Positions 1 through 36,034 of a stretch of DNA of 38,756 nt are shown here, piece after piece. The notes beneath the pieces are model-generated. The model was given only the letters and a program-made list of their open reading frames with translations, was not told where the DNA came from and ran no database searches. Position numbers and translations under genes: made by a program. Source of the stretch: Nemertoderma westbladi (lineage: Eukaryota > Animalia > Xenacoelomorpha); NCBI GenBank assembly GCA_032718475.1, contig JAUCBJ010002475.1:1-38756 (forward strand), read 5' to 3'. The stretch's first letter is position 1, and the number at the start of each line of letters is the position of its first letter.

Positions 1-115
1 ACTCGGCTGCGGAGAAACTGAGTAGCGCTGGATTTGCCGTTTTCAAGACGTTTGTATACAGAACTCACATTCATCTGTTATACAAAGACCCCGAATACCT
101 ACAGGTTATTCTGTC

Positions 116-1258
116 GTGGAAATACAGACAGTGGATCCACTTACTGAGACAGACGCACCCACTTCGTCTATACAACTGGAGGATGAACCAGTGTGCTTGG
201 AATCAGAAGCGATTCAGCCTACAACTTCCCGGAGCAGTGACAATGATTATGTCATAGAGTGGTATCAAGGTCCACAGCGTCTCACAGCGTACGATTATCG
301 ACACGCCAACTACGTTTCTCGAAAACGTTGTCGATTATGCGCATCGAGAGACCACTTCACTCCTCTAGACTCGAGCGTACCTTGTTCCTATTTCCTCAAA
401 CAACCGATGATGGAAATATATTGTGCTTATTGCCGGCTTAATAACTCTCATATATTTGCCGTCTGCCCACAATTTATGACTCAATGTCACTACTGTCAAT
501 TTAAAGGACATGAAAGTTACAATTGTCCCTTTAATCGCGATTTAGAGAGCGTAGACGAGATGATCACCCTGCGATACATCCGAGCTTGGGAAGCGAACGC
601 CGATTTACATTGCGAATCCCGACATCGCTATTACCCTGGAAGAGCTTACGAGGGAGTTTACGCGTTCCATCCTTATCTATTCGCGTCGATTGAACAGAAA
701 ACACGCGTACCAAGTTACGAGTTAATGAAGCGTGTTAGTGAGTGTATTTCCACCAAGTTTGTCAGGAAATACCTTAGAAACGTTAACCCTAATGATATAA
801 CCACATATCACCTGATCAATTGTATCCGTCAGGACCCGGAGTATGGCGACATCTTTGTGAACTCGCATCCTGAACTACAGGAAATATCTCGGCGACCATA
901 TGAATATCGAACCCGAGAACGCGAGCTGGAGAGAACCATTAAACCGAGAAAGTTCCTCACTACTCACGGTCCACCCACCGCTAGTGTCCAGACGACCCGT
1001 CAAGGACCCGTAGGAGCTGCTGTCCTGAGATGCGCTCTAAAGGCCGTTAGACCTCACTCCACTGAGGTTGATATTAATCAACCTGGTACTTCGACCGGCG
1101 GGTATACCGATCGTAACCCTGCACCTTCTGATGCAATTATATTGCACCCTTCGCCTAGGAGCTACAGCCCTCCTCGTAAAGTGGCTCGCCCCAAAGAGAA
1201 AATGACTCTTGCTAGCTTTAAAAAACTGCGTAAACGCCGTCCGCGCAAGAAAGACTAA
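116..1258 (+). CDS. Accessory (env-position) ORF of LTR element A: three CCHC-type zinc knuckles and a basic C-terminal tail. True start uncertain (frame open from 26, GTG at 116).
   Basis: Motifs CRLCASRDH-x9-C, CAYCRLNNSHIFAVC and CHYCQFKGHESYNC; C-terminus KKLRKRRPRKKD; stop lies ~70 nt upstream of the PPT and 3' LTR, in sense orientation. Confidence 0.7.
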   Translation: MEIQTVDPLTETDAPTSSIQLEDEPVCLESEAIQPTTSRSSDNDYVIEWYQGPQRLTAYDYRHANYVSRKRCRLCASRDHFTPLDSSVPCSYFLKQPMMEIYCAYCRLNNSHIFAVCPQFMTQCHYCQFKGHESYNCPFNRDLESVDEMITLRYIRAWEANADLHCESRHRYYPGRAYEGVYAFHPYLFASIEQKTRVPSYELMKRVSECISTKFVRKYLRNVNPNDITTYHLINCIRQDPEYGDIFVNSHPELQEISRRPYEYRTRERELERTIKPRKFLTTHGPPTASVQTTRQGPVGAAVLRCALKAVRPHSTEVDINQPGTSTGGYTDRNPAPSDAIILHPSPRSYSPPRKVARPKEKMTLASFKKLRKRRPRKKD

Positions 1259-1336: not shown

Positions 1337-2607
1337 TGTAAAAGCTTTTGTGGGATAACTGATTCGTTTGCCTTGTTGGCCAGTTCCCCCCCGGTCGCTA
1401 GAATACTCTAAAGGGGATCTATAGCTAAAATAGTGCAAGCTACCAGCTTATTGGCTGATTTGCTGTACGCAGGTATCTGGGCTCTGTTTAATCGGCCAAC
1501 CAGCCTAGGAAGGTTGCGTCATAGCCTTGTTTTTGTATCTCCCAATAGAATTTGAGTTAGCCTTGATTTTGACCTATCACAGAGCTACTGAACTGAAATT
1601 TTCCTATCTCACTGCTCTTTCTCTGTGTTGAACGGGAGCTTCGTGGAATAAGGGTAGTTGGTATCCTCGTATAGAGTAGTAGTCACGAGTTTTTCAAAGC
1701 CACGAAAGAACGGCTTTGTAGTGTTTTGTGCTTTCTGCTTTTTAGCTCAACACTAGTAGGTTTAATTATAAGGACATATATCCTTTAACTGCAATTTCGT
1801 AATAACTGCAATTTCGTAATAACTGCAATTTCGTAATAACTGCAATTTCGTAATAACTGCTGACACACGGCACACACGGCTTTTAATAACTGCCGTATAA
1901 CTGCTGAAACTGCTAAAATTACCTGCTCAATCGATACTGTATACTGCTATTTGTTGTCGGTTATTCATTATATTTGTTGATGAATTATTATATTGGAATA
2001 ACGAGAAATAACCCCGAAAACCCAATATTCTTGATATACCGAAGGTAAGAGAGAAAGGTTACCAATAACGATTGTGACTTATGTTAAAGTGGTTTGAAGT
2101 GAATCTAATGTTATTTGATAGACCCTACATGAGTCAGTCTGTGTTCCTTTTATATGTGACTAAAATCAGTGAAGATTGGCAGATTAGTGTGCAGTATTGT
2201 GCAGCATTGTGTATGAGTGAGTCTGTTAAAGAAGCAATTCCTAAAGAATGCGCCATATATGTGAATTATAATTAAGCCATATCGTTGTGAGTAGTTTAAG
2301 TCATAACTCTGTTTATATAAATAAAGCGCCACGTCCTAAAGGAACTGTTAATATTCCCTAAGGTGAATAATATTGTCAGAGATTATATAATACTGTCAGT
2401 CGAATAATACATTAGGCTTACATAGCAATAAAATTAAACCGTCGAACCCAATCTCCCGGGAATATCCAGCGGGTGAATGATCGCGCACAGATTGGTTTCG
2501 ACTAGTGTAGTGAATCAAATACTTGTCATAGGCTAAAAAGCGATTTAATATCTAGAAGACATCTTAATTTGGCGGATTAAACTGCCAAAGGTCTGAAAGC
2601 GCGAACA
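1337..2607 (+). mobile_element. 3' LTR of BEL/Pao element A (~1271 bp)
   Basis: Starts TGTAAAAGCTTTTG and ends GAAAGCGCGAACA; collinear with the reverse complements of 13427-14634 and 22067-23247; homology stops exactly at ACA 2607. Confidence 0.85.
1786..1860 (+). repeat. 17-bp tandem repeat (TAACTGCAATTTCGTAA, about 4.4 copies) inside LTR A
   Basis: Perfect copies read directly from the sequence. Confidence 0.95.
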
Positions 2608-3054
2608 GATATATGTCCTTATAATTAAGCCTACTAGTGTAGGACTAAAACTGAAAACACGGAGGTGCCAAAAGCCGGTTCTTAGGCTCTGGGCAAAAAC
2701 ATAACACTGAACTACTGAGTTTCTGTATACACCTCCAACACAGAGACAACAAACGCTCTGATTGGTCAACCTAAACAACGAGAGAACAAAGAAACAAAGA
2801 AACGTCGACGTGGCAATATCAGCTGCTAGCCGTCGTCATGGTAGCGACACTGTTTTCAAAAGTATCCAGCTATTGCGTCACGAGATTGTGGATTATGTCC
2901 TCTAAAGTACAAATACAGTACAAATACATAAGAAATGACTTTTATGTCCTCTAAAACACCAGTACAGCAAGGACACGGCCTTTTTATGCCTGGCAAACCA
3001 ACTACAGAGTACTTTAAGGGAAAATAACCGGCTAATTACGCAAAAGCTTTTACA
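2608..3054 (-). mobile_element. Interrupted 3' LTR (U3 part) of element B
   Basis: Nearly identical to 14184-14634 apart from one small indel near 2705; begins TGTAAAAGCTTTTG on - at 3054, preceded by PPT GGGAGCGG (3062-3055). Confidence 0.9.
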
Positions 3055-3132: not shown

Positions 3133-4418
3133 TTAGTCTTTCTTACGCAGACGGCGTTTACGCAGTTTTTTGAGGCTAGCAAGAGTCTTTTTCTCTTTGG
3201 GGGGAGCCACTTTACTAGGAGGGCCATAACTCCTGGGTGAAGGGTGCAATATGATTGCATCAGAAGGTGTAGGATTGTGGTCGAGGTATCTGCCGTTTCG
3301 ATATGCTTCTCCTCGAGCTGATTTTCCTCCGCTCGTAGCTGGATATGTTCATCCAAAAACTCTCGCAGAGAATAGGATCGTCCAAGTTCGATAACTTCTT
3401 AGAGATTCTGGATTTCCCAATCGAATTGAGATAAGGCCAATTCGTTTATCGATTGGACTTACTGTTATAACTTACGTTTATCTGAACAAACGCAGGTTTC
3501 CTTTTTGATCTTTATAGAATAGCGTTTAACTCGTTTCGTACAACGCTCTCCTTCACCTTGATGAGGGGTTGTATTGCGTTAAACGGGGACGACCATACGG
3601 TTGGATAGTGATATTAGGTGTCCGCGTCACAATCCGGCTAGGTAAGATGGGCGGCTAGCTAGAAATCACTGTCGGAGTGTTACCGATTAATTGTTAGGGT
3701 AGCACTAGATCTTTGAACAGTGAATACAGTCCGCGAGGATCCGCGACACCACCAGGATCGCAGGTCTGAGGTCCAACTAAGGAATGAGGAGGTTTGACCG
3801 AGTATTCCGGGACTCTGATCGTAGGTTTACTCCAGGATCGTTCGAGCCGAGTGAGCATAGGTGATACGTCAACAAGTTTCGGTTTCCGTGGATGTTTATG
3901 TCTTTCCGTTTATTAGTTGGGTCTAGGGCATTTATCGTAATAATACCAAAGACGCACGTCTGGTAAGGTAAACGCGGGTGATATTTATTTGTTGTTACAA
4001 TGCTTCTATCAAGAATTCCAAATATACGTTGGAGTTACCGCGTCCATTTGTTTCTTTAGTGTCTTTTCTTTCGAGTCGATTTCGAATAGAATTTTCGCAT
4101 TCGAATTTCTGTTTATGGTTCCGACTCCGCTGGGCAGGATATATAGTCGACATAGTCCGTATTGTGTAAATCGATAGGATGACCAGTAGTTAAGAAGCCC
4201 ATATACGTACCATTACGCTGCGTATATCGAGCAGCGAATTTTCTATAGTCCAACTCACGCGTGAGCTGCTCTTGGGACATTGGCGGTTCGATATAACGAC
4301 CATCGTCCTCCGCAGCAGTTGGACTAACGTCGCCGCGTATTAAGCTATCAACAAACGCTTGTAAAAGTAGAGTATATCGCTCCCCGATACCAAGACCATC
4401 TTCTATCAACTCCGTCAT
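3133..4418 (-). pseudogene. Degraded accessory ORF region of element B
   Basis: ORF MTELIEDGLG... (4418-4113) is followed by in-frame stops. The last ~50 codons (NPTPSDAIILHPSPRSYGPPSKVAPPKEKKTLASLKKLRKRRLRKKD*, stop 3135-3133) are homologous to the C-terminus of ORF 116-1258. Confidence 0.5.
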
Positions 4419-6066: not shown

Positions 6067-9000
6067 TTACGTTATGGAGTCCCTAGATGTTTGAAGGATT
6101 AGGGAGGTGGTCGTGGGAAGAGAATCTTGCCTTCCACAGTTTCCGGAGAGTCCTCCATTCCCTTCCGGTAAACACAAACGACCAGCTGGGCGATTGAGTC
6201 GCTGCATCCCGAATACAATTCCAGGTTTCCTCTTCGTCCTGGAATAGTGACGATAGAAACATCGCTCTAAGTACACGACGGCCTTACAAAGCCGATTCCA
6301 GGAGCTATAGTGGTCCGTCGCTCCCTGCAGGAGAGGTGAGAGTCCCTGCGAGACGTCTGATGTTCCAGAGCTCCAATCGCTCTCTCTGATCTTCATGAAG
6401 GATCCACTTGCGGTGGGGAGGTCCAGATCCACGGCGTCGTCCCTGGCAATATGTAATACCGACAGATCTATCCCGGGTTCAAATAACTCCGCTCCACCCG
6501 TCCGGGTTTTAGGTTTAACTTTCTCCGCTCCCTTGGCTGGTCTAATCTCAGTCAGAGTAAGATGGGGAGGCCATTCATCCTCCTTACTCAGGAAGTCGGG
6601 TTCACCTAACCGGTCTGTAGTATCTGTCAGTTCTTGAGGAGTTGCTCCTCTGGAAGCGATGTCAGTTATATTCATCGTCTTGGGGCAATATCTCCATTGG
6701 TCTACATTGGAGTTAAGATTGTCATTATCTGAGGAGTGTGGTGTTCCCTCAGTTGGGTCGTCTCCCTCACTAGTATCGTCTTCCCATTCACTCACCTGGC
6801 AGACGCGATCTTGAAGCAGTCTTTCTCTGAGCGTTCTACGGGAAGGTCCAGTAAGGTACCAACCTACTCTAGTTCTTACCGCATAGGTCTGAAGTGGTTG
6901 CGGTTGAGTAGGTCGTTTCTCTAATGTCTCCAGCGCCTCATGCGCGTTTTGACCGATTAATATTTGTACTCCAGGATAATCGGTGTCGAATCTAGGGATG
7001 TTAAGTTGTTGGGCATGATCATCTTCGTCCCAATTATAAGGTTCCACTTGGGTGGTAGCGAAGTTCTTTATTGCCACCATTTTTACTGACCTTATACTGT
7101 ATTCTCCTAGTTTATCCTGTGGAGTGGACAACTCACCTATATAATAGTCGGCAGCTACAGTAGAATTCCAAACCTGCATGATCCCTGACAAGTTTAGCTT
7201 GGTTCGGAACTTGGGTTGTCCAGCAAAGATGACTTCGGCTAGTTCTTTATCGATGAATGTTCCTGTGCTACCGGAGTCCAGGAGAGCGTTCACTATATAG
7301 CTCTTCTGAGGTCCGTGGACCCGTAACTGGACTACAGGAAATTCTCGGATTCCTATATTGGAAGTTGGCGCTTTCCAAGATGGTTGTTGATCTGAAGTAG
7401 TTAGGGTGAGGTCGCTGTCTGTGTCTTTCTCATACATGAGTGCTCGATACACTGCGGTGGTGTTTATTAAGTAACAGGATTCGTTTTCGTCGGAGAACTC
7501 GTCCGTATAGAATCCTTCCATCTCAGATTGATCAGTGTCGTTCACATCACTGAATTGGACATGTAGTTCGGACTCACTTACCTGACTCGGGCTGTTTCGT
7601 TCGAATTCCGTGTGCAACAAGATATGATGTTTTGCGCCGCACTTTGCACACCTTGCGTCGGAGTAACAGGTTCGCCGTTGGTGTCCTCGTCTGAGGCAAT
7701 TATAACACAACCGCTTATCCCACATGACTTCACGTCTATCCTTTAGTGATTTCCTCAGGAATTTATCACACGCATTTAAACGGTGGGTCCCGTCGCACAG
7801 CGCACATTTCGGTTTGATGTTACTTACCTTATTTTGAGTCACATTGTGTACACTTGCCTTTTCTTCGGGCTTTCTCACCTGAATTCTTTTAGGAGACGTA
7901 GGAAGGGTTTTTTGTACCGGTTCCCTTCTGTCATTGGGTCGAGACTCGGATTTACTTACCTGATCTTTAGGCATTTTATTGACATAATAAGATCTGTCAG
8001 TGTCTTTCCCGCTGTCCTCTCCTTGAGAAGTTTGGCTTTCACCGTCGTCGGTATAACATACTGGTGTTACCCTTCTCCTAGAAACGGGTTTCTCACTTAC
8101 CTTACTTTCCGCTGTCTTCTCTCTGGACTGCTTTATGAGCTGTAATTTCACCTCGCTATCCAAGAATGACATGAGATCAGCCATGGTAGGGCCTCGTTGT
8201 TGTTGTTCCATCATATATAACACCTTCTTGTCCCAGCGTGTACCTACTCCACCCTTGGGCAAAGTAGATGCTAAGGCTCCTACAACCATAGAATTCTGGT
8301 ATTCATGAGACTTACCTAACCAATCTAGTTGTCTACAGATCTCCTGAATCTCATCGGAAAACTCTATAATCCCGCTGCTAAGAAACTTTCGGGGCGCCAT
8401 TAATTTCGCATATAAATACCTAGCTATGTTAGTCCTATTACCATACCTGATGTTTAGTGTATCCCAAACTTGTCTTAATCCATCTGGATGTCCAATAAAT
8501 TTTAACGCCATTGACTTGGGAGATCCTTCCAAGCACTCAATGAGGTATCTAAGTTTTTCTCCATTAGATAGTACAGAGTTCTGTATGTTATCTTTGTAAT
8601 ATTCATTAAAAGGTAACCATTTCATCTCATCTCCATTGAATTTGACTATCTCTCCCACCTTCACCGCTTGACGGGCTTCGGTTCTAGCCATTTGACGCGT
8701 AAAACTTTCTTGGGCCATCGTGTTATTTAATATCGAGTTATCGGTATATAAATTTCTCGGATTATGATCAAGTCTATAGGGAATGTCATTATCAACAGGT
8801 CTATAATTACCCTTAATAGGGTTCACTATAGGAGTTTCTACTTCGCTAGCAGTATAGATGCGTGTAGGCTCCACACCTTGCGCATGAGATATTTCAGACC
8901 TAACAGGTTGACACATTGTTACAGGGGGTGGTGGTATACCCTTTTGTAAATTTACTAATTTATCGCGTTCTAGCGCGATATTTTGCTGCACTTCTTGCAA

Positions 9001-11103
9001 CTCTAGCCTACTTTCCCTTACTGTGCCCTTTAACTGTTGAACAGTCCCTTCTAACTCTCGGACCTGTTGAGAGGAGCGTGCTTGATTCTCCTCCATCTTT
9101 CCGAGGAGAATGTCCATCCCCCGCCGTCTCTCGTCCACCCAATCAACCGCCGAAACGGGATCCGCCAACGTCGTAGCGGGCAGACGAGGGACAACGGGCG
9201 ACAAATCAGTAATATTTCGCTCGGGGTCCAGGACCTGAACTGTCTTCTGGGCAGTTCTACTGGGCACAGGTAGCTTAGTGCTATGCAGAGGGAATGTAGA
9301 GGTAGCTTCAGGGAGCACAGGTGTGTCTATCACCGAAGGGGTGATTTCAAAAACAGGCCTAATTATTTCAGGCTCATCTACTATAGTAGGGAGTCTTTCT
9401 ATTTTAATTATTTGGTCTGTGGGTTCTGTACTGCCTAAGTTGGTGTTATTTAGTTGCCTTCTAACAGCTGGAGGCAAATCAGGCAATTTCTGACGGTGGA
9501 ATGTTCTTTTACGTCTGCTTAGACGAGATCTATTTCCTTTGCCTTCAGTATCGGTGGTATCGCCTTCTTCAGATGATGTATATCCCTGTCTTTTGGGAGT
9601 AGATCGATTCATCATCTGCATATTACTAGCTGTTAATTGTTTACTGAAGTCGTCTTGCTTCTCTTGAAGATTTTCCAACTCCAGTTGGGTGATCTCTTCA
9701 GCCGCTCTCCGTTCTGCTTCCGCCACCGCTGCCGCTTTTGCCTCTGCCGCTGCCGCTTTTGCCTCTGCCGCTGTCGCTTTTGCCTTTGCCTCGGCTTCTG
9801 CTGCTGCCGCTTTTGCCTCTGCCGCTGCCGCTTTTGCCTTTGCCTCGGCTTCTGCTGCTGCCGCTTTTGCCTCTGCCGCTGCTTCTGCCAAGGTCGCCTT
9901 TCTTTCTGCCTCTGCCACTGCTGCTATCTTTCTGTCTTCTATACGTTTTTTCCTTACTTGTTCTTCCTTTTCTCTAGCGATGCGGAGTTGTTCATCGAAT
10001 TTAGCTTGGTTCGCCGCTAACCTATCTACATCTATTGCATCCAACACACGCTGGGCTCCTTCACTATTAGGGCTAAGTCCATCTAGCCTTCTCCTCAACT
10101 CTTCATCTCCCAAAAAACGCTGATAGTCTGACAGATAGATGTCAATGGCATCCTTCTTATGCGGTTTCTCTGCCGTCGCTTCACTTTCCACTTGGGAAAA
10201 AGTAGCGTCCGTTGATTCTCCATGGGTTGAGCGCTCCTCCAGCTGAGCTTTCCACTGAGCTGCTCCTTGAACCTGGCGACTCACCCGTTGAAACCAAGTC
10301 TTTACGGCAACTTGCAACGACGTGTCTTGTCTTCGTTTAGAAGCCTCCTCAAAGGCCGATAATATTAACCTGATTCGTAGAATTCTTTCTCTTACTTGAT
10401 AAAGCAGCTGTCCCTGCTCTTGAGGTCCTTGAGGTTGTTGTAACAGTTGTTTTTCTACTCGCTCCATAGAGCTGAAGAATCCCTGTGCGTATCCGGCTGC
10501 GGACCTCTTCCACACAGCTGGATCTATGGTTTCCTCGGCTACTCCCATCCGGTGTATGTCTTCCCAGGCAGCTTCGGATAAATCAAACGGGAATCCGGGT
10601 CCGGGAAAGTTCCATTGCGACTCGACCATGGAGTTCAGTTCTTCCCTTGTGTATCCAGCATAACTATCTCTAGTTGAACGCTGGCTTCTTGCCCAATCGA
10701 TCTGGTGTTCTTCCACAGCGATCAATAACCTAGTGAGTACGGCTGCAGGAAGGATGAGAAGGGGATCTGAATAAGCCTCATCCGTCATCCTTGCTCCGCG
10801 TTCGGGTGTCAGTTCTACCGTATCTTCACTACTGGAGCTGTCGGGCCGCTGAGAAATAAGTTCTTGGCTCGCGGGTTGTTGCTGTTCCGCTGCTTCTTGG
10901 TCCCGCTTGACCTGAGCTCGAGTGCCTATGATAGACCTACGATGTTGGACCAGCCTAGGTTCTGTTATTACTACTGGAGGGATGGCCTTCCTCACAGTGG
11001 GAGGTGAACTGAACTTACGACCAGACAGTTCTACGTCTCTATCTGAGTCGCAGATAGTTACATCTAATAAACTGTCTGACAGGTTCTGCTTAGTATCAGA
11101 CAT
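6067..11103 (-). CDS. gag-pol: BEL/Pao Gag-protease polyprotein, 1678 aa, with internally deleted pol
   Basis: DUF1759-like FNGDEMKWLPF...EKLRYLIECLEG...RYGN; BEL-type triple knuckle CALCDGTHRLNAC / CYNCLRRGHQRRTC / CAKCGAKHHILLH; aspartic protease ALLDSGS; RNase H tail WRYCPKTMNITDIASRG; YSSWNRL motif; terminal RPAGRLCL motif. Confidence 0.92.
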   Translation of the reverse strand: MSDTKQNLSDSLLDVTICDSDRDVELSGRKFSSPPTVRKAIPPVVITEPRLVQHRRSIIGTRAQVKRDQEAAEQQQPASQELISQRPDSSSSEDTVELTPERGARMTDEAYSDPLLILPAAVLTRLLIAVEEHQIDWARSQRSTRDSYAGYTREELNSMVESQWNFPGPGFPFDLSEAAWEDIHRMGVAEETIDPAVWKRSAAGYAQGFFSSMERVEKQLLQQPQGPQEQGQLLYQVRERILRIRLILSAFEEASKRRQDTSLQVAVKTWFQRVSRQVQGAAQWKAQLEERSTHGESTDATFSQVESEATAEKPHKKDAIDIYLSDYQRFLGDEELRRRLDGLSPNSEGAQRVLDAIDVDRLAANQAKFDEQLRIAREKEEQVRKKRIEDRKIAAVAEAERKATLAEAAAEAKAAAAEAEAKAKAAAAEAKAAAAEAEAKAKATAAEAKAAAAEAKAAAVAEAERRAAEEITQLELENLQEKQDDFSKQLTASNMQMMNRSTPKRQGYTSSEEGDTTDTEGKGNRSRLSRRKRTFHRQKLPDLPPAVRRQLNNTNLGSTEPTDQIIKIERLPTIVDEPEIIRPVFEITPSVIDTPVLPEATSTFPLHSTKLPVPSRTAQKTVQVLDPERNITDLSPVVPRLPATTLADPVSAVDWVDERRRGMDILLGKMEENQARSSQQVRELEGTVQQLKGTVRESRLELQEVQQNIALERDKLVNLQKGIPPPPVTMCQPVRSEISHAQGVEPTRIYTASEVETPIVNPIKGNYRPVDNDIPYRLDHNPRNLYTDNSILNNTMAQESFTRQMARTEARQAVKVGEIVKFNGDEMKWLPFNEYYKDNIQNSVLSNGEKLRYLIECLEGSPKSMALKFIGHPDGLRQVWDTLNIRYGNRTNIARYLYAKLMAPRKFLSSGIIEFSDEIQEICRQLDWLGKSHEYQNSMVVGALASTLPKGGVGTRWDKKVLYMMEQQQRGPTMADLMSFLDSEVKLQLIKQSREKTAESKVSEKPVSRRRVTPVCYTDDGESQTSQGEDSGKDTDRSYYVNKMPKDQVSKSESRPNDRREPVQKTLPTSPKRIQVRKPEEKASVHNVTQNKVSNIKPKCALCDGTHRLNACDKFLRKSLKDRREVMWDKRLCYNCLRRGHQRRTCYSDARCAKCGAKHHILLHTEFERNSPSQVSESELHVQFSDVNDTDQSEMEGFYTDEFSDENESCYLINTTAVYRALMYEKDTDSDLTLTTSDQQPSWKAPTSNIGIREFPVVQLRVHGPQKSYIVNALLDSGSTGTFIDKELAEVIFAGQPKFRTKLNLSGIMQVWNSTVAADYYIGELSTPQDKLGEYSIRSVKMVAIKNFATTQVEPYNWDEDDHAQQLNIPRFDTDYPGVQILIGQNAHEALETLEKRPTQPQPLQTYAVRTRVGWYLTGPSRRTLRERLLQDRVCQVSEWEDDTSEGDDPTEGTPHSSDNDNLNSNVDQWRYCPKTMNITDIASRGATPQELTDTTDRLGEPDFLSKEDEWPPHLTLTEIRPAKGAEKVKPKTRTGGAELFEPGIDLSVLHIARDDAVDLDLPTASGSFMKIRESDWSSGTSDVSQGLSPLLQGATDHYSSWNRLCKAVVYLERCFYRHYSRTKRKPGIVFGMQRLNRPAGRLCLPEGNGGLSGNCGRQDSLPTTTSLILQTSRDSIT
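9700..9925 (-). repeat. Coding minisatellite for an (AAAEAKA)n helical Ala/Glu/Lys tract in Gag B
   Basis: GCCGCTTTTGCCTCTGCCGCT-type units on +; translation AEAKAAAAEAEAKAK... Confidence 0.9.
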
Positions 11104-11240
11104 GTCTACGTATACCGTTGAATGTCTACTGCTGTATTACAGTCTGAGCAAGTCTAGTAATTCAGTATTAACTGCTAGCCTAGTAATTAATTACCAATAC
11201 TGCTACTCAATGTAGCGTGATATATATATAATATATTAGA

Positions 11241-11487: not shown

Positions 11488-12429
11488 ATCAATTATTTTA
11501 AATAATTGAATTTCTGAATTTTAGGGTTACTTTGTTACTTTACTTACTTTATTACCGTTATTTGAGCAGTAGTCCAACTGATATGGAGACCTAATGGTTG
11601 TATGGTAGGCCTACTATTTATAAATCTTTTGAGTTGATTTATAATATATATATACCCTTTAATGGGTTTTGTCAATGTTTGAAATAAATGTTATTATTTC
11701 TGGGGAGTAATCACTACACAAAGCGGTGCGCTTTCAGTGAAGTGTTACTTATAGGACACTAAAACAAATAATTCTAATTTACCTAAGTTACTTAATACTA
11801 CAAATTACGTACAATTCGGTGAGATTACAATCTCTAAATAAACGCAAAAATTTACAAAGAACACAAAATACGAATTTTCAGGGTAATTTTACAAGAAGTC
11901 TACAAACCAGCCTAACAAAGGGTTAGAAATCTGGTTATTACAACGGACAGGGTTCTACGGTATTTGAAAATAATACGTAGTAGTAAGTACACTGCGTTGT
12001 CCAGATAGGAAAATACCACCGCCTGACGACCTATAGCCGTATCGCTATAGGTTCTACGTTATGTATCACGGAGTGTTCCTACCTAGAAGTTAATAGAGCT
12101 AATCGAAAGTGCCTATCAACCACTTTACAACACAAATGTAATGCCTACACTAATTACTTTCGGAAAGCACTGTACACTAAACCCTAAATTAGGTACGAGT
12201 ACTTGTACAACATATAATCAGTAGTTAAATATACTTGAACAGCTAAAAGAACCACGGCATCTGCTGGAGTGACCGATGCACAAAATCACCAGTCTTTACC
12301 TACGCCAAGCAGCCCGTGTAGTACCGGGGTTAATTTAACTATAGCGGTATGTATAACAAACACAATTACTGTAGGAACAAACTTGGGGAATGAATGTTGC
12401 GGATAATCGCATAAACTCTGAATAATAAA

Positions 12430-13000
12430 TATTACGCTACGCGTACAAACTACTCAAACAAAATGCAGACCGAACACTGACAGACTACTATCAAGCCTAA
12501 ACAAACTACGGTATATGCAGACTCCGAAATAATTAGGTAGTATGCGTTCTAACCCAGTAGTACGACTTATTCTTTAGTTGGGGGTTTACCTTACAGCATT
12601 CGCTGCCCCTACTTCCTAACCGTTCTTTATCGGACAAGTGATCTACACACGCTGCAATCCGTTCAGACCTAATAACAGCCAGACAACTATCCAGCCTACA
12701 AATTATCTAAATAAATATTATACGCTACCCGTACAGACTTACACAAACAAAGTACAGACTCAACGATGGCAGACTACTCTCAAGCCTAAATAAACTACAG
12801 GACATGAAGACTCCGAAATAATTAGGTAGTATGCGTTCTAACCCAGTAGTACGACTTATTCTTTAATTGGGGGTTTACCTTACAGCATTCGCTGCCCCTA
12901 CTTCCTAACCGTTCTTTATCGGACAGATGATCTACACACACTGCAATCCGTTCAGACTTAACAACAATCAGACAACAGCTCAGCCTACAAATTGTCTGTA
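12430..13000. repeat. ~287-bp tandem duplication in the leader of element B
   Basis: GACTCCGAAATAATTAGGTAGTATGCGTTCTAACCCAGTAG... occurs at ~12520 and ~12810. Confidence 0.9.
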
Positions 13001-13415
13001 CAATCTGATCAGGCTTACACGCCTTCTGTTCAATACTGGCCTACAAACAAATAAAACTTGACAGAAATAAGTAAAATCTCAATAAAAACCAGGCGTCCCC
13101 GATTAATTATTAAGACCTACCGGCATATATAATCAAATCGAATAATACTGCTGTACTTATACGGGAAGTACCGGTTAGGACAGTTAGGCCTACCGACCTA
13201 CTGAAGTATCGGTTCTGGCAGTTGGACCTACGGGCCTACGGCAGTACCGGTTCTGGCAGTTGGGCCTACTGACCTACAGATGGACCGTTCAGGTTTACCG
13301 GTTGACCGGTACTTTCAACTTTATTGCTTACTGCAATAAAGAAGCTATATCCGTTATTGTTCTTACCAGAACAATATTAAACTGTATTTAATGCCTACAC
13401 TGCAATACAGACTAC

Positions 13416-13426
13416 ATATCCGTTAT
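13416..13426 (-). promoter_or_regulatory. Non-tRNA primer-binding site of element B (ATAACGGATAT); a second copy lies at 13346-13357
   Basis: Directly follows the LTR end ...GCGAACA; exact reverse complement of LTR-internal ATATCCGTTAT (14188-14178 on -). Confidence 0.75.
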
Positions 13427-14634
13427 TGTTCGCGCTTTCAGACCTTTGGCAGATTAACCCGCCAAATTATGATGTCTTCTAGATAATAAATCACTTTTAG
13501 CCTATGACAAGTATTTAATTCACTACACTAGTCGAAACCAATCTGTGCGCGATCATTCACCCGCTGGATATACCCGGGAGATTGGGTTCAACGGCTTAAT
13601 TTTATTGCTATGTAAGCCTAATGTATTATTCGACTGACAGTATTATATAATCTCTGACAATATTATTCACCTTTGGGGAATATTAACAGTTCCTTTAGGA
13701 CGTGGCGCTCTATCTATACAAACAGAGTTATGACTTAAACTACTCACAACGATATGGCTTAGTTATAATTCACATATATGGCGCATTCTTTAGGAAATGC
13801 TTCGTTATCAGTCTCACTCATACACAATGCTGCACAATACTGCACACTGATCTGCCGATCTTCACTGATTTTAGTTATATATAAAAGGAACACGGACCGA
13901 ATCATGTAGGGTCTATCAAATAACATTAGATTCACTTCAAACCACTTTAACATAAGTCACAATCGTTATATGTAACCTTTCTCTCTTACCTTCGGTATAT
14001 CAAGAATATTGGGTTTCGGGGTTATTTATCGTTATTCCAAATATAATAATTCATCAACCATATTATGAAGAACTGACAGTAAATAGCAGTATAACAATAT
14101 AAAGTATGCACAGGTTGTTTGATTAGGTATGGTATGTTATGAGTTGAGTTGAGGTATGAGTTGAGATCAGACATCAGATAACGGATATATGTCCTTATAA
14201 TTAAGCCTACTAGTGTAGGACTAAAACTGAAAACACGGAGGTGCCAAAAGCCGGTTCTTAGGCTCTGGGCAAAAACATAACTGAACATGAACTACTGAGT
14301 TTCTGTATACACCTCCAACACAGAGACAACAAACGCTCTGATTGGTCAACCTAAACAACGAGAGAACAAAGAAACAAAGAAACGTCGACGTGGCAATATC
14401 AGCTGCTAGCCGTCGTCATGGTAGCGACACTGTTTTCAAAAGTATCCAGCTATTGCGTCACGAGATTGTGGATTATGTCCTCTAAAGTACAAATACAGTA
14501 CAAATACATAAGAAATGACTTTTATGTCCTCTAAAACACCAGTACAGCAAGGACACGGCCTTTTTATGCCTGGCAAACCAACTACAGAGTACTTTAAGGG
14601 AAAATAACCGGCTAATTACGCAAAAGCTTTTACA
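13427..14634 (-). mobile_element. 5' LTR of element B (~1208 bp)
   Basis: TGTAAAAGC...GCGCGAACA on -; U3 matches 3054-2608 and R/U5 matches 1950-2607. Confidence 0.88.
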
Positions 14635-15182
14635 ATCACCTCTTTAGAGAAGGCTTCTCGGTTGTCATCCGCAGTGGTGCGCACCACTGAACAGGCGTTT
14701 GAAGGGCTTGAGATTATCCCAAAAGCCTGGATGGTCATCCAGTACTCCACCGGTTTCTGGTTGAGGTCTCCTTCAGGCCACCACAGAAATCGTAGGCTAT
14801 CTCGATCCCTATCCAGCGCCTTGACTTGTAAGAACATGCCTTCTATATCTGAGGTGAAAGCGATTGAATATTGGCCTAATCTTAAAAGTATTCCCAACAA
14901 GGATTGGAGTAAGTTGGGTCCGGGTAACAATTTGGAATTAAGGGATTGGCCCATGTAGAGGGCGGAGCCGTCAAACACTACTCGTACCTCATGGGGTTTA
15001 CCGGGTTTGGGAACGTAATGGTGAGTTAAATAATACGTTCTCTCAGTTGTAGGTGTTTCTTCCGGCACTCGCTCCGCATATCCCTTGCTAATAAATTTCT
15101 TCAACTGCGTTTGATACATTTCTTTAGCTGAAGAGTTTGCCGTAAGGCGTCGATGTAGTTGAGCAATTCTTTTCTCCGCCAA
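14635..15182 (-). pseudogene. pol: N-terminal half of the Pao reverse transcriptase of element C, cut by element B
   Basis: YYLTHHYVPKPGKPHEVRVVFDGSA, SLNSKLLPGPNL, DIEGMFLQV, RDSLRFLWW, FGIISSP; ends at the LTR B terminus before the expected YVDD motif. Confidence 0.92.
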
Positions 15183-15209
15183 GGGTCTGTTGTTTATGAA
15201 CTTTGGTTC

Positions 15210-16163
15210 TCACTTTCGGAAAGGTAGACCGATTTCATATCTACCTTGATCTTTAAGAAAACGTGTAGTTGTCTCTTGGATCTGCTTGGCTCTTTCTTCT
15301 TCTACCGATAGGGCCTTATCGTAGGAATTGGGCTCTACAGCCTCTTGAGTAAAGAATCGTACGGCGTGTTCATCCCGAGTCTTGGCATTATAACGTTCAA
15401 TGACGTCATTCAGTTCGTCGTTATATTCGTCTCGGTCTAATGGACGAAGGTGCTGACATAAGTTCACTTGGTTTTGCCAAGTCTCGTTTTCCTTAAGGAG
15501 ATCAATGGTATTCTCCTCGTCGAAGAGTTGGTGGACATCGTCATTATCTGAGGAGCATGGTGTTCCCTCAGTTGGATCGTCTAACTCACTGCTCTCAACC
15601 TCCCATTCTCTTACTTGATATACCTGATCTTTCGGTAATCTTTCCATGAGAGTTCTACAGGAAGGGCCAGTAAAGTACCAACCCACTCTAGTTCTTCCCG
15701 CATAGGCTTGCAGTGGTTGCGGTTGAGCAGGCCGTTTCTCCAATGTCTCGAGCGCCTCATGCGCATTTTGACCGATGAGTATTTGCACTCCAGGGTAATC
15801 GGTGTTGAATCTAGGTATATCAAGCTGCTGGGTGAAATCGTCCTCATCCCAGTTATAAGGTTCCACTTGGCTGGTAGCGAAGTTCTTTATCGCCACCAAT
15901 TTTACTGACCTTATGCTATGTTCTCCTAGTTCATCCTGGGGGGTGGACAATGCACCTACATAATAATCCGCTATTACTGTAGATTTCCAAACCTGCATAA
16001 TTCCTGACATGTTTAGCTTAGTTCGGAACTTGGGTTGTCCAGCAAAGATGTCTTCGGCTAGTTCTTTTTCGATGAATGTTCCTGTGCTACCGGAATCAAG
16101 GAGGGCGTTCACTATATAACTCCTTGTAGGTCCGTGGACCCTTAGTTGTACTACAGGAAATTC
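15210..16163 (-). pseudogene. pol: Aspartic protease region of element C (frameshifted at both ends)
   Basis: ALLDSGSTGT, QILIGQN, RTRVGWYFTGP, GRYEIGLPF; highly similar to the B protein. Confidence 0.9.
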
Positions 16164-19100
16164 TCAGATTCCTACATTGGAAGTTGGTGCTTTCCAAGAT
16201 GGTGGTCGGTCAGAAGTAGTTAGGGTGAGCTCGCTGTCGGTGTCCTTTTCATACGTAAGTGCTCGATACACTGCGGTATTTATCATGTAACAGGATTCGT
16301 CTTCGTCGGAGAATTCGTCCGTATAGAATCCTTCCATCTCAGAACTTTGGTCAGTGTCGTTCACATCACTGAATTGGACATGCAGTTCGGAATCACTTAC
16401 CTGACTCGGGCTGTTTCGCTCGAATTCAGTGTGCAACAAGATATGATGTTTCGCACCGCACTTTGCAAACCTTGAGTCGGAGTAACAGGTTTGCCGTTGG
16501 CGTTCTTGTCTGAGGCAATTATAACACAACCGCTTATCCCACATGACTTCCCGTCTATCCGTTAATGATTTCTTTAGGAATTCATCACATACATTCAAAC
16601 GGTGGGGCCCGTCACACAACGCACATTTCGGTTTGATGTTACTTACCTTATTTTGAATAACGTTGTGCACACTCGTTCTTTCTTCGGGCTTTCTTACCTG
16701 AATTCTTTTAGGAGACGGAGGAGGAGTTTTTCTTACCTGTTCTCTCCTGTCATTAGTTCGAGACCTGAATTTACTTACGTCTTTGGGCGTTTTGTTGACA
16801 TAATAAGATCTTTCAGTGTCTTTCCCGCTGTCCTCTCCTTGAGAAGCCTGGCTTTCGCCGTCGTCGGTATAACACACTGGTGTTACCTTTCTCCTAGAAA
16901 CGGGTTTCTCACTTACCTTATTTTCCGGTGTCTTTTCTCTGGACTGCTTTAGGAGCTGTAATTTCACTTCTCCATCTAAGAATGACATGAGATCAGCCAT
17001 GGTAGGGTCTCGTCGTTGTTGTTCCATCATATATAACACTTTCTTATCCCAGCGTGTACCTACTCCACCCTTCGGTAAAGTAGAGGCCACGGCTCCAATA
17101 ACCATAGAACTCTGATATTCATGAGACTTACCTAGCCAATCTAATTGTCTACAGATCTCCTGAATTTCATCGTAAAACTCTATAATCCCGCTGCTAATGA
17201 ATTTTCGGGGAGCTACCAATTTTGCATACAAATACCTAGCTATGTTATTCCTATTACCATACCTGATGTTTAGGGTATCCCAAACTTGTCTTAATCCATC
17301 TGGATGTCCAATAAACTTTAACGCCATTAACTTGGGAGATCCTTCCAAGCACTCGATGAGGAATCTAAGTTTCTCTTCGTTAGATAGCACAGAGTTCTGT
17401 ATGTTATCTTTGTAATATTCATTAAAAGGTAACCATTTCATCTCATCTCCATTGAACTTGACAATCTCTCCCACCTTTACCGCTTGACGGGCTTCGGTTC
17501 TAGCCATTTGACGCGTAAAACTTTCTTGGGCCATCGTGTTATTTAATATCGAGTTATCGGTATATAAATTTCTCGGATTATGATCAAGTCTATAGGGAAT
17601 ATCATTGTCAACAGGATTATAATTACCCTTAATAGGGTTCACTATAGGAGTTTCTACTTCGCTAGCAGTATAGATGCGTGTAGGCTCCACACCTTGCGCA
17701 TGAAATACTTCAGACCTAACAGGTTGACACATTGTTACCGGGGTTGGTGGTATACCCTTTTGTGTATTTACTAATTTATCACGTTCTAACGCAATACTTT
17801 GCTGCACTTCTTGCAACTCTAACCTACTCTCTCTAATTGTTCCCTTTAACTGCTGCACAGTTCCCTCCATCTCCTGGGCCTGCTGAGAGGAGCGAGAATG
17901 TTGTTCCCTCAGCTGTCCGAGCAGGAGACCCATCTCCCGTCGTCCCTCATCTACCCACTCGACCGCCGAAGCGGGAGGCGCCAATGTTGTAGCGGGCGGA
18001 CGAGGGACAACGGGCGACAAGTCATGAATATTTCGCTCGGAGTCCAGGACATGAACAATTTCAGGGGTGGTTCTGTGGGGCACAGGTAGCTTCGTGCTGT
18101 GCAGAGGGAATTTAGAGGTAGGTTCAGGGAGTACAGGTGTCTCTATCACCGAAGGGGTGGCTTCGAGAACAGGCCTAATTATTTCAGGCTCATCTACTAT
18201 AGTAGGGAGTCTTTCTATGTTAATTATTTGGTCTGTGGGTTCTATACTACCTAAGGTTGTGTTATTTAGTTGCCTTCTAACAGCTGGGGGCAAATCAGGC
18301 AATTTCTGACGGTGGGACATTCTTCTATGTCTGCTTAGACGAGATCTATTTCCTCCGCCTTCAGGATCGGTGGTATCGCCTTCCTCAGATGATGTATATC
18401 CCTGTCTTTTGGGAGTTGATCGACCCATCATCTGCATTTGACTAGCTGTTAACTGTTTATTTATGCAGTCTTGATTCTCCTGAATGTTTTCCAATTCTAG
18501 TTGGGTGGTTTTTCAGAGGCTCTGCCTCTGCCGCTGCCACTGCCGCCTTTCTTTCCGCTTCGGCCACTGCCGCCTTTCTTTCCACTTCTACCGCCTTTCT
18601 TTCCACTTCTACCGCCTTTCTTTCCGCTTCTACTTCTGCCGCTGCCACTGCCGCTTTTCTTTCCGCTTCTGCCACTGCCACTGCTGCTGCCACTGCCGCT
18701 GTCTTTCTGTCTGCTATACGTTTTTTCTTTACTTGTTCTTCTTGGACCCTAGTGATGCGGAGGCGTTCATCAAATGTAGCTTGGTTCGAAGCTCTCATAT
18801 CCGCATCGATTGCGTCCAACACAAGGTTGGCTCCTTCACTATTAGGGCTAAGTCCATCTAGCCTTCTCCTCAACTCTTGATCACCTACAAAGCGTTGATA
18901 GTCTGACAGATAGATGTCAATGGCATCCCTCTTATGCGGTTTCTCTGCTGTCGCTTCACTTTCCACTTGGGAAAATGTAGCGTCTGTTGATTCTCCATGG
19001 GTTGAGCGCTCATCCAGCTGAGCTTTCCACTGAGCCGTTCCTTGAACCTGGAGACTCACCCGTTGAAACCAAGTCTTTACGGCAACTTGCAACGACGTGT

Positions 19101-19878
19101 CTTGTCTTCTTTTAGAAGCCTCCTCAAAGGCCGATAAGATTAGCCTGATTCGTAGAATTCTTTCTCTAACTTGATAAAGCAGCTGTCCCTGCTCTTGAGG
19201 TCCTTGGGGTTGTTGAAACAGTTGTTCTTTTAATCGCTCCATAGAGCCGAAGAATCCCTGTACGTATCCTGCTGCTGACCTCTTCCACACAGCTGGATCG
19301 ATGGTTTCTTTTGTTACTCCCATCCTGTGTATGTCTTCCCAGGCAGCTTCCGATAAGTCAAACGGGAGTCCGGGTCCGGGGAAGTTCCATTGCGACTCGA
19401 CAATAGACTTCAGTTCTTCCCTTATGTATCCCGCATAACTATCCTTGGTCGATCGCTTACTTGTCGCCCAATCAATCTGGTGTTCTTCCACCACAATCAA
19501 TACCCTAGTGAGTACGGCTGCAGGAAGGATGAGAAGGGGATCTGAATAAACCGCATCCGTCATCTTTGTTCCGCGCTCGGGTGTCCGCTCTACAGTATCC
19601 TCACTACTGGAGCTGTCGGGCCGCTGAGAAATACGTTCTCGGCTCGAATGTTGCTGCCGTTCCGCTGCTTCGTGGTCCCGCTTAACCTGAGCTCGAGTGC
19701 CTATGATAGACCTACGGTGTTGGACTAGCCTAGGGTGTGATACTACTACTGGAGGGATGATCTTTCTTACAGTAGGAGGTGAGTTGAACTTCGGTCTCAC
19801 ACGTTCCACACTCCTGTCTGGGTCACAGATGGTTGTATCTAGGAGACTGTCTGACAGGTTTTGCTTTGTGTCAGACAT
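16164..19878 (-). pseudogene. gag: Gag of element C, split by a frameshift near 18500
   Basis: ORFs 19878-18457 and 18494-16164 together match B Gag. Knuckles 2 and 3 are mutated (CYNCLRQERQRQTC, FAKC). Confidence 0.9.
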
Positions 19879-20014
19879 GTTTGTTTGTACAGTTGAATGT
19901 CTACTGCTATATTACAGTTTAAGCAAGTCTAGTAATTCAGTATCACTGTTAGCCTAGTAATTAATTACCGATACTGCTACTCAGTGTAGCGTGATATATA
20001 TATAATATATTAGA

Positions 20015-20264: not shown

Positions 20265-21214
20265 GTCAATTATTTTAGAATAATTGAATTTCTGAAATTT
20301 TAGGGATTACTTGGTTACTTTGCTTTACTTGATTACCGTTATTTAAGCAGTAGTCCAACTGATATTTAGACCTAATTGTTGTATGACAGGACTACTATTT
20401 TATAAATCGGTTTGAGTTGATTTATAATATATATACCCCTATAATGGGTTTTGTCAATATTTGAAATAAATGTTATTATTTCTGGGGGGAGTCACTACAC
20501 AGAAGCTGTGCGCTCTCAGTGAGGTGCTACTTGTTGGACACTAAAACAAATAATTCTAATTTACCTAAGATACTTAATACTACAAATTACGTACAATTCG
20601 GGGTGAGATTACAATCTCTAAATAAACACAAAAATTACACGTACGAAATTTTAGGGTAATTTTACAAGAAGTCTACAAACCAGCCTAACAAAGGGTTAGA
20701 ATATCTGGTTATTACAACGAACAGGGTACTACGGTGTTTGAAAATAATAAGTAGTAGTAAATATACTGCGTTGTCCAGATAGGAAAATACCACCGTCTGA
20801 CGACTTATAGCCGTATCGCTATAAGTACTACGTTATGTATCACGGAGTGTTCCTACCTAGAAGTTAATTACCGCGGTCTACCAGAACCAACGTGCCTATT
20901 AACCACTTTACAACACAAATATACTGCCTATACACTAATTACCTTCGGAAAGCACTGTACACTAAACCCTAAATTAGGTACAAGTACTCATACAACCAAT
21001 AATCAGTAGTTAAAATACTTGAACAGCTAAAAGAACCACTGTATCTGCTGGAGTGACCGGGGCACAAAATCACCAGTCTTTACCTACGCCTAGCAGCCCT
21101 GATGTAGTACCGGGGTTAATTTAACTATAACGGTATATATAACAAGCACAATTACTGTAGGAATAAACTTGGGGATATGAATGTTGCGAATAATCGCATA
21201 AACTCTGAATAATA

Positions 21215-21790
21215 AATATTACGCTACGCGTACAGACTACTCAAACAAAATGCAGACCAATTGCTGACAGACTACTATCAAGCCCAAACAAACTACGGTA
21301 TATGCAGACTCCGAAATGGTTAGTTAGTATGCGTTCTAACCGAGTAGTACGGCTTATTCTTTCGAGGGGGTTTACCTCACAGCTCTGGAAGCCCCTACGT
21401 TCCCAACTGGCACTTTATCGGACATACACTCTACACACACCGCGATCTCTTCAAACCTAACAACAGCTAGACAACAATCCAGCCTACAAATTATCTAAAT
21501 AAGAAATATTACACTACCCGTACAAACTACACAAACAAAATACAGACCAAACGCTGGCAGACTACTATCAAGCCTAAATACACTACAGTATATGCAGACT
21601 CCGAAATGGTTAGTTAGTATGCGTTCTAACCGAGTAGTACGACTTATTCTTTCGAGGGGGTTTACCTCACAGCTCTGGAAGCCCCTACTTTCCTAACTAG
21701 TACTTTTTCGGACATACGCTCTACACACACTACAGTAACTTCAGACTTAACAACAGTCAGACAACAGTCCAGCCTACAAATTATCTGTAC
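21215..21790. repeat. ~290-bp tandem duplication in the leader of element C
   Basis: GACTCCGAAATGGTTAGTTAGTATGCGTTCTAACCGAGTAG occurs at ~21307 and ~21597. Confidence 0.88.
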
Positions 21791-22054: not shown

Positions 22055-22066
22055 TATATCTGTTAT
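22055..22066 (-). promoter_or_regulatory. Non-tRNA primer-binding site of element C (ATAACAGATATA)
   Basis: Follows the LTR end ...GCGTACA; exact reverse complement of LTR-internal TATATCTGTTAT (22811-22800 on -). Confidence 0.75.
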
Positions 22067-23247
22067 TGTACGCGCTTTCAGACATTTAGCAGTTTAACCT
22101 GCCAAATTGGGATGTCTTCGAGATAATAAATCGACTTTAGCCTATGACGAGTATTTGATACACTACATTAGCCGAAGCCAGTCTATGCGCGTCCATTCAC
22201 CCGTTGGATATACCCGGGAGACTGGATTCGGAAGCTTAATCTTATTGCGGTGTAGGCCTACTGTATTATTCGACTGATCGTAATATGTAATCTCTGACAA
22301 ATATTATTCACTTTCGGGAAATATTAACAGTTCCTTTAGGACGTGGCGCTCTAAATATGTAAACAGAGTTATGACTTAAACTAGACACAACGGGATGGCT
22401 ATAGATTCACGTATATGGCGCATTCTTTAGGATATGCTTTGTTATCAGTCACAATCATACACAATACTGCACAATGCTGATGCACACTGATCTGCCGACC
22501 TTCACTAATTTTAGTCACATATAAAGAGAACAACAGACAATACATGTAGTGCCCATGAAATAGCATTAGATTCACTTCAAACCACTTTAATGTAAGTCGC
22601 AATCGTTATATGTAACCGGTCTCTCTAACCTTCAGTATATCAAGAAGATTGGGGTGTCTGATTATTGATTGATATTCTCCAATATAATAATATTCCATCA
22701 ACAGATATAATGAATAACCGACAGTAAATAGCAGTACAAGTGTTAAGGTATAAATTGATATGATCGATTTGGTTTGTTTGATTGATATGAATTGTTAATA
22801 TAACAGATATACGTTCTATAATTAAGCCTACTAATGTTGGGCTAAAGACTGAAAAACACAGAGATTCCAAAAGCCGGTCTTCTAGGCTCAGGACAAAATG
22901 TAAACATTGACCCTGTGAGCTGTTGCAGATAGCTTTCAACACAAAGAGGAAAAGCTCTCATTGGCAGAGCTCCATATTCCACAGATTCCACGAATGTCTA
23001 AATGCCGAACTATTCGGGTTTTTGCAGCCCTTAGCCAACACACAGGATGAATCACTCTGCTTGGTTGACCTTGCTCTGGTTGGTTGATCGAACAGAACAA
23101 AGAGGCCATACGTACAGCAAATCAGCCAATCAGCCGGTAGCTTGCATCATTTGAGTTAGGGAGTTTTTCTTTAGAGTATTTGAGCGCATTGAGGGAAACT
23201 GGATTGCGAAGCAAAAGGGCCAGTTATATCCCACAAAAGCTTTTACA
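22067..23247 (-). mobile_element. 5' LTR of element C (~1181 bp)
   Basis: TGTAAAAGCTTTTGTGGG...GCGCGTACA (TGTA/TACA termini); homologous to LTRs A and B. Confidence 0.85.
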
Positions 23248-26938: not shown

Positions 26939-27619
26939 TCCTCAGCAAGTCTCTGATCGGATGAGCATAACCTCAAAAGATGGTATGCTTGAGCATGTGG
27001 ACGACTTCTGTTACCTGGGATCATGGATCCGGAAGTCAGGTGAGGACCTTCGAATACGTAAGGGAAAGGCATGGGCAGCCTTGAATAGGCTTTCCGGGAT
27101 TTGGAAGTCACCGAGAATTAATCGGAAACTTAAGGTCCGATTATTTAGAGCAGCAGTAGTTCCAGTACTCCTCTACGGGAGTCCATGCTTGGCTCTAACT
27201 GCTGAGGACACCAAATCTCTGGATGGCACATTCACAAGAATGCTACGCCGGGTTCATTGTGTCAAGTACAATGCACACATCTCCAACCAGACGCTATAAC
27301 ATTGGAGGTGTCTCATTGGTTCCCCCAAGCTTGACACTAGAACAAAATCGCCTCCGCTTTGCAGGACATTGCTTTCGCCGTGAGGACCAACCAGTGCATA
27401 ATCTTGTACTTTGGCAGCCTCATGGAGTGAATAAGCATGGTGGACAGCCCATGACTTTCTTGAGACGCATCTTAAAGGACACTGGCCTTGAAGATGCGGA
27501 TGATCTAGCAAATGTCATGGGTGATAGGGAGTTGTGGCGGTGCAATTTTGTCGATAAGCCGGCACAGCATTCTTAAAAATGCAGCTGCAATGCAGCATGC
27601 CGATCCTAGTAGTAGTAGT
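26939..27619 (+). mobile_element. 5'-truncated RTE/RTEX-type LINE, copy 1
   Basis: FCYLGSW and RLRFAGHCFR motifs; (TAG)n tail; 11-bp TSD ATACACCTCTG at 26928-26938 and 27620-27630; near-identical to 35089-35770. Confidence 0.9.
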
Positions 27620-27985
27620 ATACACCTCTGCAGCAATGTTTGAATAAGTTATAATACTCAAAACTTTCGCCCATCATTATGCCTGTAATTTCGCCCCATA
27701 TAAATTTGTTGGATGGGCAATTGCCCTCCTTGCCCCCTTGTCCCGTACGCCTATGGGACTATTAATTGTTGACAAGTTACGCATTTCATATGTAACTTAT
27801 TTGTGTCAAGAAGATATGTATACTTGTCCACCAATTTACAGTATTCACGAGGTCATTGTTACAAGACTACTATATTTAGGGACAAACCACACAATATTTG
27901 ACAAGTCTACTTTGACAAGACTACTTTTTTTATAATAGTCTTGGAAACAATAGCTATTGTAGCCAAACTACAGTTCATTAAAAAT

Positions 27986-35770: not shown

Positions 35771-36034
35771 ATTAGTTTAATAATGAATAGAATTGATTTA
35801 GTAATCGGGTAACGTTTTTAATTGCCGATATTTAATGTCACCGGTCTGCTCCGCACGTTGTACATCATCTCCTCAGCTTTCTAAAGATAAGTCTCTGTGT
35901 TCCCGCAATTTATTCTTAAGTAAATAAATAAACATATTTCAATATTTACAAATTTTTTGGATCGTTTCAGTGTATTTTCTTTTTTTTCTGAATTTTTTGT
36001 CGGAATCTCCTTCACAGTTCTCATTGTCTTTCAG

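Follow-up and report, generated by a model that had tools for sequence, protein, structure and literature searches.

Self-priming of reverse transcription, as recounted in the excerpts of the literature drawn on here, is exemplified by Tf1, in which the RNA's initial 11 bases pair with the primer-binding site (PBS), RNase H cleaving between bases 11 and 12 (PMC7175516). It has been proposed on sequence grounds for Tj1 of S. japonicus (PMC4600332), is described for the Tf1/sushi and Tcn1 groups, and is predicted for TAR, Houba and Osr-1 (PMC6317226, PMC4600332), the criterion for these last three being an LTR segment complementary to at least 10 nt that start 0-5 nt past the LTR (PMC6317226). 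Hairpin priming has also been speculated to predate tRNA priming (in an excerpt of PMC3601003). The ICTV profile of the Belpaoviridae specifies an 18-nt PBS that pairs with the 3' end of tRNA-Arg or tRNA-Gly (PMC8742986), which bears out the premise, adopted in a sequence-only reading of the present locus, that BEL/Pao elements are generally described as tRNA-primed. A word search of the available text of four BEL/Pao surveys (PMC554778, PMC3118150, PMC6238403, PMC8556966) returned no mention of a PBS or a tRNA, and the available portions of PMC3286476 and PMC5443660 hold nothing further on BEL/Pao self-priming. Our literature search, the range of which stopped short of subscription papers, Repbase entries and supplements, found no paper on self-priming in this superfamily.

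The window, by which we mean the entire 38,756-nt stretch of DNA analysed, contains three nested, related LTR elements, here termed A, B and C (Table 1). They are BEL/Pao elements by their predicted proteins (gag in B and C, RT in C), an identity already claimed in the sequence-only reading and sustained by the DUF1759 gag domain, recovered in both B (E 1e-13) and C (8.6e-12), and by the Pao-type RT of C. The RT piece of C has 576 protein matches; among the matches listed, those with names are 41-51% identical to it, derive from marine invertebrates and fish, and mostly carry the Pao domain PF05380. A protease-like motif lies upstream of the RT in C, the RNase H and integrase of which fall beyond the window, and the TG...CA LTR ends and polypurine tract typical of BEL/Pao elements are present. 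The protein of B has three Cys/His clusters, and tblastn with two full-length homologues as queries detected no RT in this element, which is non-autonomous. Its frame (6067-11136) stays open despite the missing RT, and includes a long N-terminal part of gag and a low-complexity Ala/Glu/Lys repeat; Gag and protease may still be produced by B, non-autonomous though it is. The surviving 3' LTR remnant of B differs from its 5' LTR by 0 mismatches and 4 gap columns, indicating that B is young.

Table 1. Positions of the LTRs, coding regions and candidate priming sequences of elements A, B and C within the window
Feature	Position	Strand	Remarks
A 3' LTR	1337..2607	+	1271 bp; PBS of A beyond window
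B 3' LTR remnant	2608..3054	-	first 447 bp survive; element A cuts inside primer motif
B open frame	6067..11136	-	1689 aa, first Met 11103; gag (DUF1759, CCHC knuckles), protease-like region, short tail
Second PBS copy in B	13346..13357	-	ATAACGGATATA; 12-nt match, 69 nt downstream; from 69-nt leader duplication
PBS of B	13416..13426	-	ATAACGGATAT; abuts 5' LTR, no gap
B 5' LTR	13427..14634	-	1208 bp, TGT...ACA, last bases GCGAACA; X5 contigs likewise mark its end
Candidate self-primer in B LTR	14178..14188	-	ATATCCGTTAT; LTR position 447-457
C coding region	14635..19911	-	four frame pieces: gag (DUF1759), protease-like, start of Pao-type RT; B cuts at 14635
PBS of C	22055..22066	-	ATAACAGATATA; offset 0
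C 5' LTR	22067..23247	-	1181 bp
Candidate self-primer in C LTR	22800..22811	-	TATATCTGTTAT; LTR position 437-448

Several further features of the window deserve record. Element A, on the plus strand, is represented by its LTR, a purine tract and a 3' ORF. The ORF, of 410 aa (26-1258, plus strand), stands directly before the purine tract, encodes three Cys/His clusters and a basic tail, and matched no Pfam family; B retains the last 41 codons of an A-type 3' ORF at 3175-3297 (minus strand; 78% identity), and the 410-aa frame is an additional 3' ORF of the A/B family. We rejected a DIRS-like interpretation of the LTR copy that lies inverted at 1337-2607: this copy is part of a distinct element that has a purine tract and an ORF of its own, and the proteins are of the BEL/Pao type. 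Between its 5' LTR and the 1689-aa frame B has a 2.3-kb leader, and a tandem duplication of 289-290 nt is present in the 2.3-kb leader of B (12424-12997) and in that of C (21204-21786). ORFs with RVT_1 and DUF6451 and partial repeats at 34520-35727, 26939-27621 and 35089-35772 probably represent a non-LTR retrotransposon unrelated to self-priming. Over 13300-14300 of the window, runs X1 and X3 show a summed contig depth of about a million, with 10,699 contigs from X1; this depth, which is not a copy number, suggests that the family is very large and diverse. A 30-nt LTR pattern had 0 matches among metagenome and viral contigs.

The PBS of B, ATAACGGATAT, is an exact complement (11 of 11 positions) of the motif ATATCCGTTAT in the LTR of the same element, and begins at offset 0 from the LTR end. 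A T at 14189 would permit one extra G-U pair beyond the motif. The sequence-only reading had described just this arrangement, an 11-nt reverse complement flush with the LTR boundary in place of TGG, and its geometry proves exact: the LTR end (13427), PBS (13426-13416) and motif (14188-14178) were all correctly placed on the minus strand, and the motif that it located about 450 nt from the LTR start lies at LTR position 447. From base composition 0.0007 such matches are expected, and in a control across B a complement of at least 11 nt anywhere in the LTR was found at 5 of 8,870 internal positions (0.0006). The LTR end itself is fixed independently of the PBS, in that the match to the LTR copy of element A stops at 13427 and contigs of run X5 start or break at 13426-13427. 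No tRNA gene was detected in the window by ARAGORN, and the leader and LTR gave no tRNA match, Rfam returning only a hit of chance level (E 0.94). Neither B and C nor 10 relatives have TGG within the first 8 nt past the LTR, and by this measure B and C lack the 18-nt PBS for tRNA-Arg or tRNA-Gly.

Contigs from independent runs corroborate the PBS. In two runs most PBS-bearing contigs track that of B through its last base, and in X1 a set of 20 contigs matches it to 13416 and then continues like the second PBS copy. The leader duplication that gave rise to this second copy is skipped by contigs of X1, X3 and X4 (joints 13341/13345/13346 to 13416). Contigs that diverge downstream converge again on B immediately beyond the motif, at 14174-14177, and among the 40 of 143 contig variant rows listed no variant falls in the motif or PBS of B.

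Element C has the same arrangement. Its PBS ATAACAGATATA pairs with its LTR motif TATATCTGTTAT at 12 of 12 positions, a match length reached at 0 of 6,870 positions in the corresponding control (chance < 0.0002). Hence both B (11 nt) and C (12 nt) possess a PBS that adjoins the LTR at offset 0 and is complementary over at least 10 nt to their own LTR. The last 500 bases of the two LTRs are 84% alike (426 of 507 columns), and one base differs between the motifs, with the partner base differing in the PBS (C:G to T:A); the covariation sought by the sequence-only reading is thus present between B and C as one paired change, which within the family amounts to a single event. Placing the B motif on the C PBS produces a mismatch with a pairing energy of -7.1 kcal/mol as against -11.8 for C's own pair, a loss of about 5 kcal/mol; the reciprocal combination, C motif on B PBS, is tolerated via a G-U pair. 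A spliced primer was also considered for B and C and rejected, the best GT-AG junction at offset 0 giving 8 nt as opposed to the 11-12 nt of the contiguous match.

By RT alignment we retrieved 79 BEL/Pao loci from metagenomes, forming 50 families at 85% RT identity; viral contigs yielded no relative by the same alignment. For 12 loci (11 families) the LTR ends were set ahead of all primer testing, by comparing one LTR copy with the other, with that of L003 shifted by one base to CA. In none of these 11 families does TGG follow the LTR, and 10 of them have a match of 10-15 nt to their own LTR. In nine the match, of 11-15 nt and 0-4 nt past the LTR end, exists only across a predicted GT-AG junction, the corresponding introns lying inside the LTR, measuring 76-186 nt and having GTAAGT, GTAAGC or GTACGT as donors. 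The tenth, L058, has a contiguous match of 10 nt; the remaining family, L063, has none at the automatically set LTR end and a spliced one of 11 nt only once that end is shifted by 10 nt. LTR ends of 14 further families were set by eye after the candidate had been seen, and hence not blind. Together the 25 families comprise 20 spliced and 5 contiguous cases, each exceeding all 40 random anchors, with the same proviso for the 14 not scored blind. The other 25 of the 50 families were left out because no LTR end could be set, L013, L018, L022 and L077 having also been viewed by eye to no effect. In a blind scan of 62 loci, 15 of 39 families had junction matches of at least 11 nt following CA or TA; reversed junctions gave 0 of 39, and 30 cross-family shuffles without a distance limit gave a median of 3 families (range 1-10).

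In a 12 x 12 matrix of PBSs against LTRs, own-LTR scores range from 10 to 15 and cross scores are at most 9 in 127 of 132 cells, four of the five exceptions involving the PBS common to the sister families L003 and L006. Compensatory change of the kind expected of Tf1-type self-priming is thus present in the predicted pairings, both in the one base pair that differs between B and C and in the family-specific fits across 12 elements. Across 27 elements many different PBS sequences occur, each fitting its own LTR, in 20 cases only across an intron junction. The helix ends at the LTR end, or 2-5 nt from it, in all 27, and in 26 the primer falls within 0.29-0.70 of the LTR length, several LTR starts being approximate. 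Judged from these predicted pairings, the same arrangement with different letters recurs in many distant BEL/Pao families, of which B and C display the intron-free form of the putative self-primer.

The RT tree (68 rows, one per family) shows the families with spliced matches scattered over its breadth. Three of the contiguous families, L008, L026 and L053, share a clade with a fish protein, and L058 is placed elsewhere. The fifth, L004, forms a supported clade with the spliced L044 and the family of the likewise spliced L067, and the last seven primer bases of L004 and L044 are identical, making this clade the best case for a putative loss or gain of an intron at the primer. Element C, on a long branch (1.33), groups with two unnamed proteins (100/96), no retrieved locus lying beside it.

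These observations suggest that the B/C family likely primes reverse transcription in a Tf1-like manner with the LTR motif of its own RNA rather than with a host tRNA. By analogy with Tf1, the motif would form the 5' end of the genomic RNA, or lie close to it, and would fold onto the PBS about 750 nt downstream. The RNase H of the RT, which in the case of B would have to be supplied in trans, would then cut after the last motif base, and the freed 3' end would be extended into U5. The resulting strong-stop DNA would terminate just beyond the motif before jumping to the 3' LTR copy, so that the 3' LTR would be the template from which the motif, any intron within the LTR and U3 are copied anew. 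In most relatives an LTR intron would have to be spliced out to assemble the primer, which B and C would carry ready-made. This raises the possibility of a broader scenario, to which we assign about an even chance, wherein a broad animal branch of BEL/Pao gave up tRNA priming, and in most of its families the host spliceosome builds an 11-15-nt self-primer from an LTR intron. Under this scenario only the spliced RNA would prime, renewed copying from the 3' LTR would keep the intron in existence, and elements of the B/C type would have lost the intron, with the junction fixed as a ready-made primer.

The TATA evidence is mixed. The only TATA-like box of B, TATAAG, is at -11 from the motif; taken as a TATA box it would set the start just downstream of the motif, an ill fit with a start at the motif, which the sequence-only reading had put at about TATATC. 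Within 40 nt upstream of the motif of C there is no TATA-like box, and a clear one near -30 was seen in 1 of 25 relatives (L037, TATATAA 31 nt before the primer), a second relative having TATTAT at -33. In folds begun at the motif the helix of C has a probability of 0.5-0.6; B pairs instead with its second PBS copy, the probability for the first being 0.0. Folds of both B and C include a U5 hairpin and an imperfect U5-leader pairing, and neither contains a perfect U5-leader stem of at least 9 bp.

Around the motif the LTRs of all three elements are mosaic, those of A and B being 46-60% alike before position 600 and 93-97% thereafter; such mosaicism is expected near a strand-transfer point, which fits the proposed mechanism and does not prove it. 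A variant of the motif in the LTR of A, TATATCCTTTAA at 1777-1788, predicts a third PBS, which was not found among the contig rows listed. The stretch just downstream of the motif (14100-14177; 1786-1860) varies greatly between the three elements and the run contigs, with indels and, in A, a 17-nt tandem repeat; it coincides with the place where the proposed strong-stop DNA would end and jump, again a fit rather than a proof. At 2607-2608 the LTR end of A meets the 3' LTR of B in opposite orientation in mid-motif, after ATATC. Insertion there has a likelihood of about 1% for a random LTR site, and the junction is most likely an ordinary nested insertion.

Self-priming could also operate with another geometry, in which the RNA would begin either past the motif or far ahead of it, and cleavage would release the primer from the 3' LTR copy (the RNA closing into a circle) or from within an extended leader, whether in cis or on the second packaged RNA. 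The box at -11 in B speaks for it, as does the exon-1 share of the match in the spliced relatives, which at just 4-10 nt would make a very short first exon if transcription started there; the motif should moreover be present in both LTR copies of the RNA. Against this stand the TATA box at -31 from the primer in L037, the location of the primers along the LTR (given above with its approximate LTR starts), which is a common position for U3/R, and the precedent of Tf1, which in the account excerpted from PMC7175516 employs the RNA 5' end. We regard this variant as unlikely. That the pairing is structural or regulatory, serving packaging, dimer formation, a translation switch or the sensing of splicing as something else primes, seems less probable again: sequence alone cannot separate priming from other uses of a helix, but the helix consistently ends at or close to the LTR end, where the 3' end of a primer must lie, and none of the 12 elements checked has a TGG site there.

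The description of the Belpaoviridae as tRNA-primed in the ICTV profile (PMC8742986), along with half-tRNA priming in copia lineages (PMC6317226, in excerpt), lends some plausibility to a host tRNA half or other small RNA as the primer, with the LTR motif a captured copy of it. Yet a fixed host RNA would not vary with the LTR between B and C, and would not account for the diversity of PBSs among the 27 elements, each suited to its own LTR and 20 of them only across an intron junction; together with the lack of a tRNA gene in the window and of a tRNA match in leader or LTR, this renders the proposal quite improbable. Least credible, to the point of being very improbable, is that the match arose by chance or that a local inverted duplication, peculiar to this one copy or introduced in assembly, produced it as an artefact. 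The sequence is A+T-rich and the locus heavily nested, but the control frequencies for B and C are low (0.0006 and < 0.0002), the PBS is found in independent runs and the trait recurs in distant families.

If BEL/Pao elements are self-primed, they would be the third LTR superfamily of this kind, after gypsy (described) and copia (predicted), implying that tRNA-free priming has either arisen repeatedly or is old. A splicing-dependent primer, if real, would tie replication to host RNA processing. A PBS complementary to the element itself would explain why tRNA-based annotation reports no PBS in such elements, and the match between PBS and own LTR offers a simple new rule for locating LTR ends. 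Under the ICTV definition, Belpaoviridae replication is primed by a host tRNA; B and C lack the PBS that it specifies.

In their general organization B and C resemble the Belpaoviridae (genus Semotivirus), sharing the DUF1759 gag, the order of protease then RT, the Pao-type RT, TG...CA LTRs of about 1.2 kb and a purine-rich tract before the 3' LTR; unlike in the profile of that family, a tRNA-Arg or tRNA-Gly PBS is absent (PMC8742986). With the plant Ty1/copia elements of the TAR lineage, Houba and Osr-1 they share a complement of at least 10 nt starting 0-5 nt past the LTR, the feature on which self-priming was predicted for those elements, which differ in being copia elements of plants and, in the excerpted descriptions, in having a contiguous primer only. 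The closest parallel is with Tf1/Tf2 of Schizosaccharomyces pombe, Tj1, and the Tf1/sushi and Tcn1 groups of Ty3/gypsy, which likewise have no tRNA PBS and in which about 11 bases past the 5' LTR pair with an LTR segment. B and C do not possess the Ty3/gypsy RT and gag that define Tf1/sushi membership, and would be Tf1-like in working without being members of that group. They differ from Tf1-type elements in superfamily (BEL/Pao by gag and RT) and in their animal host, and the start and cleavage proposed for them are modelled on the latter. A further difference from Tf1-type elements, in the excerpted descriptions of which no intron is mentioned, is that the BEL/Pao relatives of B and C appear to build the primer across a predicted intron.
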